DNA from: Octopus vulgaris
Taxonomy: Eukaryota
Assembly (NCBI GenBank): GCA_951406725.2
Contig: OX597837.1
Span: 40,858,001 to 40,922,000 of the forward strand
DNA length: 64,000 nt
Direction of reading: 5' to 3'
This document shows, in pieces, positions 4,852 to 62,145 of the stretch. Position 1 is the stretch's first letter. Every line of letters begins with the position of its first letter. Below the pieces are notes generated by a model, which was not told the DNA's origin, searched no databases, and saw nothing but the letters and a program-made list of their open reading frames with translations. Made by a program: the position numbers and the translations under genes.

Positions 4852-5064
4852 TTAAAATAAAAAATGTTCATTCGATTTCCTTTCGTTTATCTATATATAT
4901 GTATACTATATATGGGTGCAGCATTGGCAGGTTATATATACAGTACATACGTACATCTCCCTCTGTCACACGCACACCCAAACATTTTCTCTCTCACCGC
5001 TTTTTTTTCTCTCAATCCTCTGTCGAAGAGCGTAGACCTGAAACATCAAAGACTTTTCCCTTCT

Positions 5065-5862
5065 TCTCTTTTACTTGTTCCAGTCATTTGACTGCGGCCA
5101 TGCTGGAGCACCACCTTTAGTCGAGCAAATCGACCCCAGGATTTTCTCTTTGTAAGCCCAGTACTTATTCTATCGGCCTCTTTTGCCGAACCGCTAAGTA
5201 CAGGGACGTAAACATACCAGCATCGGTTGTCAAGCGATGTTGAGAGGACAAACACGGACACACAAATATACAAACACACGTACATATGCATATATTTACA
5301 CATATACGACGGGCTTCTTTCATTTTCTGTCTACCAAATCCACTCACAAGGCTTTGGTCGGCCCGAGGCTATAGTAGAAGACGCTTTGCCCAAGATTCCA
5401 CACAGCAGGAGTGGCTGTGTGGTAAGTAGCTTGTTTACCAACCACATGGTTCCGGGTTCAGTCCCACTGCGTGGCACCTTGGGCAAGTGTCTTCTACTAT
5501 AGCCTCGGGCCGACCAAAAGCCTTGTGAGTGGATTTGGTAGACGGAAACTGGAAGAAGCCCGTCGTATATATGTGTGTGCGTGTATGTTTGTGTTTGTCC
5601 CCCTAGCATTGCTTGACAACCGATGCTGGTGTGTTTATGTCCCCGTCACTTCGCGGTTCGGCAAAAAGAGACCGATAGAATAAGTACTGGGCTTACAAAG
5701 AATAAGTACCGGGGGTCGAGTTGCTCGAGTAAAGGCGGTGCTCCAGCATGGCCGCAGTCAAATGACTGAAAAAGAGTAAAAGAGAGTAAGAGAGCAGGAC
5801 TGAACCCGGAACCATGCGGTTGGTAAGAAAGCTACTTACCACACAGCCACTCCTATGCCTAT
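5065..5862 (-). mobile_element. tRNA-derived SINE family B (CORE-like), split by a nested copy
   Basis: 3' part at 5065-5400 and 5' head at 5795-5862 (gactgaacccggaaccat...ccacacagccactcct) match the other family-B copies in the window. Confidence 0.9.
5404..5792 (+). mobile_element. SINE family B, full length, nested antisense in the previous copy
   Basis: Pol III A/B boxes (tggctgtgtgg / ggttcagtccc), gcaccttgggcaagt, tail ggcggtgctccagcatggccgcagtcaaatgactgaaa. AGCAGGA is duplicated at 5404-5410 and 5793-5799. Confidence 0.92.
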
Positions 5863-6130: not shown

Positions 6131-6309
6131 GATATTTGTCCTCATCTTGTTTTTTGTTAACACAACGTTTCGGCTGATATAACCTCCAGCCTTCTTTATT
6201 CCTAAGGTATTTTTCGATGTTATTATTACATTTCCCCAATACACCTGATGAAGGCTGGAGGGGTATAGCAGCCGAAACGTTGTGTTAACAACAAATGAGG
6301 GCAAATATC
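6131..6309. mobile_element. Penelope-like (PLE) inverted pLTR remnant
   Basis: Imperfect inverted repeat 6131-6194 / 6250-6309; each arm carries hammerhead stem II-GAAAC-stem III. Confidence 0.75.
6241..6285 (+). ncRNA. Minimal type-I hammerhead ribozyme
   Basis: acac-CTGATGA-a-GGCTG[loop]CAGCC-GAAAC-GTT-gtgt. Intact core, stems I and II paired, palindromic AACGTT stem III. Confidence 0.85.
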
Positions 6310-20156: not shown

Positions 20157-20234
<78 letters not shown>

Positions 20235-20404
20235 ATAATAGTTATCGCCATACTAATATGGCATTCTTATAAAAATAAGAATAAAGCTGTCCGCTTATTA
20301 GCTCCATGAGGCCATCGCCTTAAGTTAGCTATTTGATACACAAACTGTATCCATATAACCTTCGAACAAGGGAGGTCAGTCGCTCCACACTACTTGACCG
20401 GCAG

Positions 20405-20444
20405 CTACAGACGCGTTTCGAGGTATTGCCCCTTTTCAATGCAG
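20405..20444 (-). ncRNA. Type-I hammerhead ribozyme, U3-A8 variant (copy 1)
   Basis: - strand: CTGCA-TTGAAAA-GGGG caata CCTC-GAAAC-GC-GTC-TGTAG. Confidence 0.82.
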
Positions 20445-20766
20445 CGTAGCCAGCCAGTAGGTGTCGCTTCCGACAATCTCTGTTCGATGGTTTTATTTTC
20501 CTAGTTTCGGTGGAATACATCCACTTGTTTTCAATAATAGAAATATTAAAATAACTAAGTCTCTCTAAAAGAGAACAGCGGCAGCGTTCCCGGAAAATAA
20601 TAGTTATCGCCATACTAATATGGCATTCTTATAAAAATAAGAAAAAAGCTGTCCGCTTATTAGCTCCATGAGGCCATCGCCTTAAGTTAGCTATTTGATA
20701 CACAAACTGTATCCATATAACCTTCGAACAAGGGAGGTCAGTCGCTCCACACTACTTGACCGGCAG

Positions 20767-20806
20767 CTACAGACGCGTTTCGGGGTATTGCCCCTTTTCA
20801 ATGCAG
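20767..20806 (-). ncRNA. Type-I hammerhead ribozyme, U3-A8 variant (copy 2)
   Basis: - strand: CTGCA-TTGAAAA-GGGG caata CCCC-GAAAC-GC-GTC-TGTAG; perfect stem II. Confidence 0.85.
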
Positions 20807-21035
20807 CGTAGCCAGCCAGTAGGTGTGGAGCGACTGACCTCCCTTGTTCGAAGGTTATATGGATACAGTTTGTGTATCAAATAGCTAACTTAAGGCGATG
20901 GCCTCATGGAGCTAATAAGCGGACAGCTTTTTTCTTATTTTTATAAGAATGCCATATTAGTATGGCGATAACTATTATTTTCCGGGAACGCTGCCGCTGT
21001 TCTCTTTTAGAGAGACTTAGTTATTTTAATATTTC

Positions 21036-21112
<77 letters not shown>

Positions 21113-29304: not shown

Positions 29305-29305
<1 letters not shown>

Positions 29306-29468
29306 TTGATAAAAATGGTAAGACAACAAAAGAAAGAAAGAGACCTCGATATTATGTAAATAGAGGAATTTATCTGTAAATGTAATATGAGACAATTATT
29401 CGGTAGCCATGGTAAAACTCAGAGTTTCGGATACCGAATCACACAATAATTTCCCTTTGTATAACGGT

Positions 29469-29472
<4 letters not shown>
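29305..29472 (-). mobile_element. PLE-type pLTR fragment (same family as 35423)
   Basis: Shared aaagaaagagacctcgatatta..gtaaatagagg; hammerhead 3' half ccGAAACtctgagtt on - strand; (TA)n flanks. Confidence 0.6.
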
Positions 29473-29800: not shown

Positions 29801-29844
29801 AATATCTGAGGAAGGAATATTATTCCGAAATATCATATCAGACT
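29801..29844 (+). ncRNA. Hammerhead ribozyme motif, stem I degenerate
   Basis: CTGAGGA-a-GGAA tatta TTCC-GAAA-tatcat-ATC-agact. Confidence 0.6.
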
Positions 29845-35422: not shown

Positions 35423-35710
<288 letters not shown>

Positions 35711-52059: not shown

Positions 52060-52465
<406 letters not shown>

Positions 52466-61807: not shown

Positions 61808-62144
61808 ATTCTTTTACTCTTTTAGTTGTTTCAGTCATTTGACTGCGGGTCTGCTGGAGCACCGCCGACCCCAGGACTTATCATTTGTAAGCCTAGTACT
61901 TATTCTATCGGGCTCTTTTGCTGAACCGCTAAGTTACGGGGACGTAAACACACCAACATCGGTTGTCAAGTGATAGTGGGAGGACAAACACAGACACCAA
62001 CACATACACACACACGCACACACACACACACACATATACATATATATATATACGACGGGCTTCTTTCAGTTTCCGTCTACCAAATCCACTCACAAGGCTT
62101 TGGTCGGCCCGAGGCTATAGTAGAAGACACCTGCCCAAGGTGCC

Positions 62145-62145
<1 letters not shown>
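61808..62145 (-). mobile_element. SINE family B (head missing)
   Basis: Close match to the 5404 copy in reverse. Confidence 0.9.

Follow-up and report, generated by a model that had tools for sequence, protein, structure and literature searches.

The window, the whole 64,000-nucleotide stretch of Octopus vulgaris DNA that was analysed, contains an insertion of 808 bp at 20234 to 21041 that lies between two TA-repeat target tracts. The left (TA)n tract (20194..20231) is followed by two extra bases (20232-20233) before the insertion begins, and the right (TA)n tract occupies 21039..21110; a target-site duplication is not resolvable within these flanks. The minus strand is the sense strand of the insertion. 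On this strand, a continuous sense tract of 593 nt (20234..20826), equal to 1.64 units of a 362-nt monomer, includes both predicted hammerhead cut sites and reaches its 3' end at 20234 without a tail. The tract consists of a first 231-bp direct repeat (20234..20464), a spacer of 69 bp (20465..20533), a 62-bp segment (20534..20595) and a second 231-bp direct repeat (20596..20826). The 62-bp segment resembles the tail of a Penelope-like element (PLE), standing at the inverted end of the insertion and absent from its left end. An inverted, 5'-truncated copy of 219 bp (20823..21041, plus strand) includes the tail and lacks the hammerhead core, and it meets the sense tract at an inversion joint with a 4-nt overlap, GTGT (20823..20826), which is the reverse complement of 20749-20752.

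Both long repeats reported in the first-pass annotation were re-found in the sequence. The 231-bp direct repeats inside (TA)n are spaced 362 bp apart and differ at two positions (20282/20644 and 20421/20783), and the perfect inverted repeat with its GTGT overlap at 20823-20826 has arms of 219 nt (20534-20752 and 20823-21041) that are 100% complementary and 70 nt apart, placing the second hammerhead in the loop region of the fold-back as had been claimed. Chance falls far short of explaining perfect repeats this long in non-simple sequence. No second copy of the 362-nt unit was found elsewhere in the 64-kb window.

Each direct repeat contains a type I hammerhead on the minus strand, the first at 20387..20464 (U3 20439, A8 20434, C17 20410) and the second at 20749..20826 (U3 20801, A8 20796, C17 20772). 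Cleavage is predicted at 20410/20409 and 20772/20771, and this earlier assignment of strand and sites was borne out by the sequence and by the pairing model, in which all 26 modelled pairs of either copy are standard. The modelled fold has a 6-bp helix I, a UAC bulge and further helices, and a 4-bp helix II with a CAAUA loop, while helix III consists of one A-U pair closing CGCG within the palindrome ACGCGU; helix II of the first hammerhead includes one G-U pair, which arises from the private allele at 20421 (see below). The UAC bulge and CAAUA loop may be similar to the Schistosoma tertiary contact. Relative to the free MFE of the 593-nt sense tract, the double-hammerhead fold is 6.1 kcal/mol less stable and two monomeric active folds are 13.4 kcal/mol less stable, and the hammerheads are predicted to cut as a dimer through a strand swap at the ACGCGU palindrome. 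The modelled fold thus agrees with the palindromic stem III and dimer-type hammerhead that had been read from the letters.

Canonical metazoan type I hammerheads, as described in PMC4209133, combine a 6-bp helix I, a 4-bp helix II, a 1-2-bp helix III and a palindromic loop. The hammerheads had been called minimal, as in PLEs; however, the features of the PLE minimal form (a helix II of 7-8 bp, a short helix I and an extra base before helix II) were not found, as helix I has 6 bp, helix II has 4 bp and no extra base precedes helix II, and the modelled ribozymes are instead of the canonical type I. The reading of U3-A8 as a compensatory swap of the core pair was upheld, and it proved to be a published variant already, described as a natural covariation of the 3-8 core pair that is active in vitro (PMC3088659; PMC4209133) and reported from the Cercyon-PLE min-HHRs of Schistosoma mansoni with about 1,300 hits (PMC4209133). 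The core covariation of the published variants is identical, whereas here it would occur in a canonical type I fold, as a prediction, in a retrozyme-type family. None of the 9 weak matches that an Rfam scan gave at E up to 5 was a hammerhead, probably because the core is altered, and scanning JGI metagenome contigs and IMG/VR with a hammerhead pattern gave 0 matches in each.

Two PLE-type minimal hammerheads are present elsewhere in the window, both unrelated to the 362-nt unit. An imperfect palindrome of about 180 bp at 6131-6309 carries one of them in its right arm, with the canonical core CUGAUGA at 6245 (plus strand); it has the appearance of an older PLE stub whose 5' end is inverted, and its sequence is unrelated to that of the unit. 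At 52092-52300, a short element between (TA)n tracts bears a minimal hammerhead-like motif (CUGACGA at 52176, plus strand), and no further copy of this element was found in the window. We also observed a short (TA)n-flanked repeat at 29305-29472 with a relative at 35423-35543 and 35551-35641 that is arranged as a direct plus an inverted piece (79-89% identity); 29305-29472 and 35423-35641 may represent a further family of PLE-type stubs. Position 29806 has a weak hammerhead-like match. The 78% 'palindrome' formed by 5057-5793 and 61811-62145 apparently represents two opposite-orientation copies of a dispersed SINE-like repeat, presumably an octopus SINE.

The 362-nt unit recurs in public sequence, with 20 of the 24 listed runs (11 studies, 8 coded organism labels among the 20) containing 0.76-0.90 of 41 sampled unit words. 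Four runs (X1, X4, X14 and X18) were aligned to one rotation of the unit, 20300-20661. In X18, a single 392-nt contig runs from 20402 once round the unit to 20431 with ends that overlap by 30 nt (362+30), and this cycle, from another organism label and study, differs from the locus at only 2 positions. In X4, the cycle is closed by contigs of 310 and 112/113 nt with 30-nt overlaps at both ends and even depth (10.5 versus 6.5+3.4). The junction 20533/20534 is bridged by at least 31 letters on each side in X18 and X1, among 22 inspected pieces of 2,302. No contig of the low-depth runs X4 and X18 branches into other sequence, the X4 cycle having one bubble, and the shares of contigs continuing into unlike sequence are 0, 0, 0.1 and 0 across the four runs. 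The retrozyme-like 362-nt unit of the first-pass annotation is borne out by this closure of the family as a 362-nt cycle in public contigs, and the closed cycles in X18 and X4 contradict the possibility that the unit occurs only as random 5' truncations. Judged by these contigs, the 362-nt unit represents an established family and did not arise by chance truncation, and because its cycle is present in other runs, the 362-nt period is older than this insertion.

All four aligned runs carry G at 20421 and A at 20499 (in X1, by depth, 264,825 of 264,825 at 20421 and 531,794 of 532,035 at 20499), and the locus letters at these positions, in the first direct repeat and the spacer respectively, are therefore private to the locus. 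The locus letter at 20282, also in the first direct repeat, is probably private as well, the equivalent 20644 having no other listed letter. Summed depth in X1 reaches up to 1.5 million, compared to 34-105 for rare joints, which suggests a very high copy number, although depth is no copy count. An assembly-graph cycle fits a tandem DNA array, an RNA circle or overlapping dispersed copies alike. None of the 20 matching runs is recorded as RNA, which is uninformative on expression, and the runs guessed as RNA are contigs that can reveal neither circles nor strand. We make no claim of horizontal transfer, because the labels are coded and small runs of 5-6 Mb could merely carry host DNA. A search of open-access text found no prior description of the 362-nt family or of a cephalopod retrozyme; Repbase, Dfam or the supplement of PMC7229834 may hold one.

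Loose ends at 20454, 20574, 20579, 20635 and 20653 in X1 and X14 resemble diverged versions of the unit. They point to at least one related subfamily, one apparently altered beside the hammerhead core, and may lead to a parent element.

The monomer predicted between the two cut sites (20410..20771, minus strand) is highly self-paired. In circular form it folds at -117.8 kcal/mol, compared to -82.5 +/- 5.9 for shuffles (z -6.0), and in linear form at -122.8 (z -6.4), with 0 of 100 shuffles as low in either case; the antisense of the circular monomer gives a z of -5.4, and monomer GC is 41%. The spacer (20465-20533) is predicted to pair with the 3' flank of the hammerhead, prolonging stem I, and with the tail region, with pair probabilities of 0.66-1.0 at 10 sampled paired spacer positions. 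On present evidence, the model favours the spacer as structural RNA, not as a GIY-YIG remnant. The peptide RKIKPSNRDC, which had been likened to a GIY-YIG C-terminus, does occur in the translation of this locus, with the K codon of RKIK starting at 20499; however, the family letter A at 20499 converts this codon to TAA, making the peptide private to this locus. The 94-aa frame matched 0 Pfam families, and homologues were absent both from 92 candidates among longer proteins, a search of low power for a short decayed peptide, and from proteins of similar length, likewise at low power. With a stop at the family letter and these low-power null results, the likeness to GIY-YIG did not hold up. Neither the insertion nor the adjoining sequence contains an RT or GIY-YIG ORF, as an autonomous EN+ PLE would.

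Two other processes were considered for these sequences and rejected. A-to-I editing does not explain the origin of the private alleles, whose sense changes are U>A, C>U and U>A, and splicing within the unit does not explain the two skip joints in X1, which are not GT..AG; no GT..AG joint was found among the joints listed for the four aligned runs. As a separate observation, the spacer with the family letter at 20499 reads AG/GTAAAT at 20497-20503 (minus strand), which is splice-donor-like. PLEs carry an intron near the pLTR.

Read along the minus strand, the insertion consists of an inverted 219-nt piece, a 4-nt overlap and 593 continuous nt across both cut sites, and its outer ends map to unit positions equivalent to 20534 and 20596, a separation of 62 nt. 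Insertions of EN+ PLEs, as described in PMC8557442 and PMC3846280, combine a partial tandem with an adjacent inverted 5'-truncated copy, show a bias to microsatellites and carry a 30-40-bp tail on one side only, and mapping has shown that the PLE tail spans the stretch from one RT start site to another (PMC11167929). The locus contains the same partial tandem with an adjacent inverted 5'-truncated copy, in support of the PLE-type insertion architecture proposed earlier. Its target is AT-rich microsatellite, with (TA)n on both sides, a weak test because TA tracts are very common in the window, and its extension is one-sided, at 62 bp compared to 30-40 bp in published PLE tails. The fold-back to which the first-pass annotation drew attention stands in part: the inverted arm is real in the sequence and corresponds to a known by-product of PLE insertion (PMC3846280; PMC8557442).

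Further copies bear on the ends of the insertion. In X14, two contigs begin at 20534/20535, summed depth is 42-73 in the bins 20443-20520, passes through 169 and reaches 515 at 20534, and TA repeats follow on two copies that break off at 20368 and 20396; as far as these contigs go, the pattern fits a recurrent 3' end and dispersed truncated family copies. Recurrence of the tail-less end (equivalent to 20596) was not found in other copies in the four aligned runs, and no autonomous PLE sharing the unit sequence was found in the data searched, which included no whole genome. We consider attribution to PLE enzymes likely, judging from the architecture of this single locus.

Hammerhead stem I has the inversion joint at its distal end, no more than 2 nt out of the native register. 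Self-priming has been proposed for palindromes found at the inversion joints of PLEs (PMC3846280), and the ribozyme itself supplies the palindrome here, in the form of this stem. When all 362 positions are compared as cDNA 3' ends by their snap-back energy, the joint comes 7th-8th and a hairpin at 20655-20663 comes higher; this ranking is a single observation made post hoc. The 3 private substitutions all fall in the first 300 of 808 bp (p about 0.05), a weak hint in favour of a heterogeneous multimeric template or later mutation over two passes round one circle. No strand-changing joint was seen among the 6 joints listed, with 4 of 24 runs aligned, which says nothing on this locus because no aligned run holds its 20421 allele.

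We then considered how a transcript of this copy would behave. In the full minus-strand transcript, the 219-bp helix forms with the second hammerhead as its cap (MFE -538); imposing the double-hammerhead fold on this transcript gives up every arm pair, at a cost of 84.2 kcal/mol. The double-hammerhead pairing crosses the 219-bp helix, and because the energy model is pseudoknot-free, +84 kcal/mol overstates the block if threading is possible. Even with both sites cut, 219 of 362 monomer nt are predicted to stay paired to the arm. By this model, it is more likely that the locus yields hairpin RNA or nothing rather than a circle, unless transcription starts inside. The mirror-image end is likely a scar of PLE enzymes that would hinder release of circular RNA from this copy. 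Instead of the switch between circular RNA and dsRNA that had been suggested, the prediction is that the arm prevents the monomer from being excised from read-through transcripts.

Taken together, the locus is in our judgement probably one retrotransposed copy of a non-LTR retrozyme, likely inserted in trans by PLE enzymes and bearing hammerheads that are predicted to cut as a dimer. As in known retrozymes, tandem copies would be transcribed, two hammerheads would swap strands through ACGCGU and cut, and a host ligase would circularise the 362-nt monomer. A PLE endonuclease would nick the (TA)n tract, and RT would copy 593 nt through both cut sites from a start at the tail-less site 20234 (equivalent to 20596); because the sense tract crosses both cut sites, the template would have been an uncut multimer or a ligated circle. 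The second end would start at the tail site (equivalent to 20534), either as a second cDNA off the other target strand or by snap-back, and the two parts would join where hammerhead stem I makes them complementary. Either route, a single cDNA snapping back or two opposite-strand cDNAs being joined, fits the sequence, and the two-cDNA route would account more simply for an arm that ends at the family terminus. In a minus-strand read-through transcript, the 219-bp arm would lock the second hammerhead in a hairpin and hold 219 of 362 nt as duplex, making this copy a poor source of circles unless transcription starts inside. A bolder version seems rather doubtful to us, in which PLE enzymes use two fixed start sites 62 nt apart, stem I recurrently primes inversion, and the family is very abundant, barely diverged and self-limiting by hairpin RNA. 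If true, inverted copies would be born unable to excise a circle, long hairpin RNA could silence the family, and the junctions would be direct proof of what mobilises animal retrozymes.

Retrotransposition of a retrozyme by PLE enzymes must be weighed against other origins of the same architecture. The insertion could be a partial-tandem 3' stub of an autonomous PLE in the course of becoming a retrozyme, with the spacer as the end of an endonuclease gene, which we hold to be unlikely. The architecture is that of PLE insertions, retrozymes have been argued to derive from PLE pLTRs (preprint 10.64898/2026.07.22.740005), U3-A8 cores are reported in Schistosoma PLE hammerheads (PMC4209133), and 95 further loose ends beyond those listed may include a rare branch into a PLE body. 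However, the cycle shows no branch in X18 and a single bubble in X4, with run-on shares of 0, 0, 0.1 and 0, the family letter at 20499 is a stop in a frame with 0 Pfam families and 0 homologues (low power), and the models give the hammerhead a canonical retrozyme shape and the spacer a structural pairing. The first-pass annotation had seen a recent PLE-to-retrozyme intermediate; instead, the 362-nt cycle already exists in X18, under another organism label and in another study, with 2 differing positions. It is quite improbable that the mobiliser was a non-PLE LINE, with the inversion arising through twin priming. LINE-1 twin priming produces inversions joined at microhomologies, which is a point for this reading. 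LINEs or PLEs are named as candidate mobilisers in PMC7229834, but the inverted part here duplicates sense-tract sequence and ends at the family terminus, generating a one-sided tail as in PLEs, and the locus shows neither poly(A) nor a target duplication that can be resolved.

It appears very improbable that the repeat is a satellite spread as DNA, by unequal exchange, extrachromosomal circles or replication template switching, in which the hammerhead has decayed or is inactive and RNA plays no part. Although the graph cycle is compatible with tandem arrays, no matching run is recorded as RNA (itself uninformative) and cleavage here is a prediction, the locus holds an isolated 1.64-unit copy in (TA)n, 5'-truncated copies are joined to TA repeats, and the hammerhead is intact with a compensated core and, in the models, strong single-strand folding. 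Least probable of all is an inverted arm produced by assembly or library fold-back on a real retrozyme copy, for which one may cite arms that are 100% identical despite 3 private changes elsewhere in the insertion, and the lack of a strand-changing joint among those listed in the four aligned runs. The arm, however, stops exactly at the family terminus and is followed by (TA)n and a unique flank, the right flank is not a mirror of the left flank, such inversions are described as the norm in PLE insertions (PMC8557442; PMC3846280), and the four aligned runs lack the locus allele at 20421, making the absent joint uninformative for this locus.

From its sequence, the locus is most likely a real, young-looking copy of a non-LTR retrozyme whose core variant and PLE insertion pattern are both already known. 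Several features that mark retrozymes were found here: the unit belongs to a recurring family within the ~150-450-bp range, two consecutive units each carry a type I hammerhead, no protein-coding ORF is present, GC is under 50% and the predicted monomer is highly self-paired. The finding extends a known class and opens none, because it concerns one locus with sequence and model evidence only. A retrozyme copy with a PLE footprint would nonetheless provide junction-level support for the unproven PLE mobilisation of animal retrozymes, and an abundant, little-diverged family makes mobilisation testable by counting termini. With its U3-A8 core, the family also illustrates how entire retrozyme families can escape a search based on Rfam models or the CUGANGA consensus.

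Among known systems, non-LTR retrozymes include the 350-390-bp units of mussels and HHR_Amex1 of the axolotl, the latter with a 1-bp helix III and efficient cleavage only as a dimer (Cervera and de la Pena 2020, PMC7229834). As described in that work, metazoan non-LTR retrozymes share with the octopus unit a non-coding head-to-tail organisation in units of a few hundred nt that each contain a single type I hammerhead, GC <50% and a highly self-paired predicted circle that leaves the hammerhead free, and HHR_Amex1 shares the 1-bp helix III and palindromic tetraloop that imply dimeric cleavage. The locus differs from them in its U3-A8 core, inverted 5' end and one-sided tail, and is known here from sequence. 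With EN+ PLE insertions, as reported, the locus has in common a partial tandem, an inverted 5'-truncated copy whose overlap of a few bases falls at a palindrome, a tail confined to one end, an AT-rich or (TA)n target and a hammerhead in the repeat; it differs in lacking an RT or GIY-YIG ORF, in a unit that closes on itself at 362 nt, in a tail of 62 compared to 30-40 bp and in a hammerhead that is canonical, not minimal. The enzyme that inserts animal retrozymes is, in the published accounts, still inferred from co-occurrence and relatedness (PMC7229834, PMC7761336, 10.64898/2026.07.22.740005). Li, Clavereau and Pollet (2026, bioRxiv 10.64898/2026.07.22.740005) proposed that retrozymes come from PLE pLTRs and use PLE enzymes, on the basis of co-occurrence and sequence relatedness, mostly in vertebrates, with the mechanism of mobilisation left open in that preprint and 1 of 9 predicted retrozyme dimers cleaved in vitro. 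The idea of PLE enzymes is shared, and the octopus locus adds to it evidence from an insertion junction.
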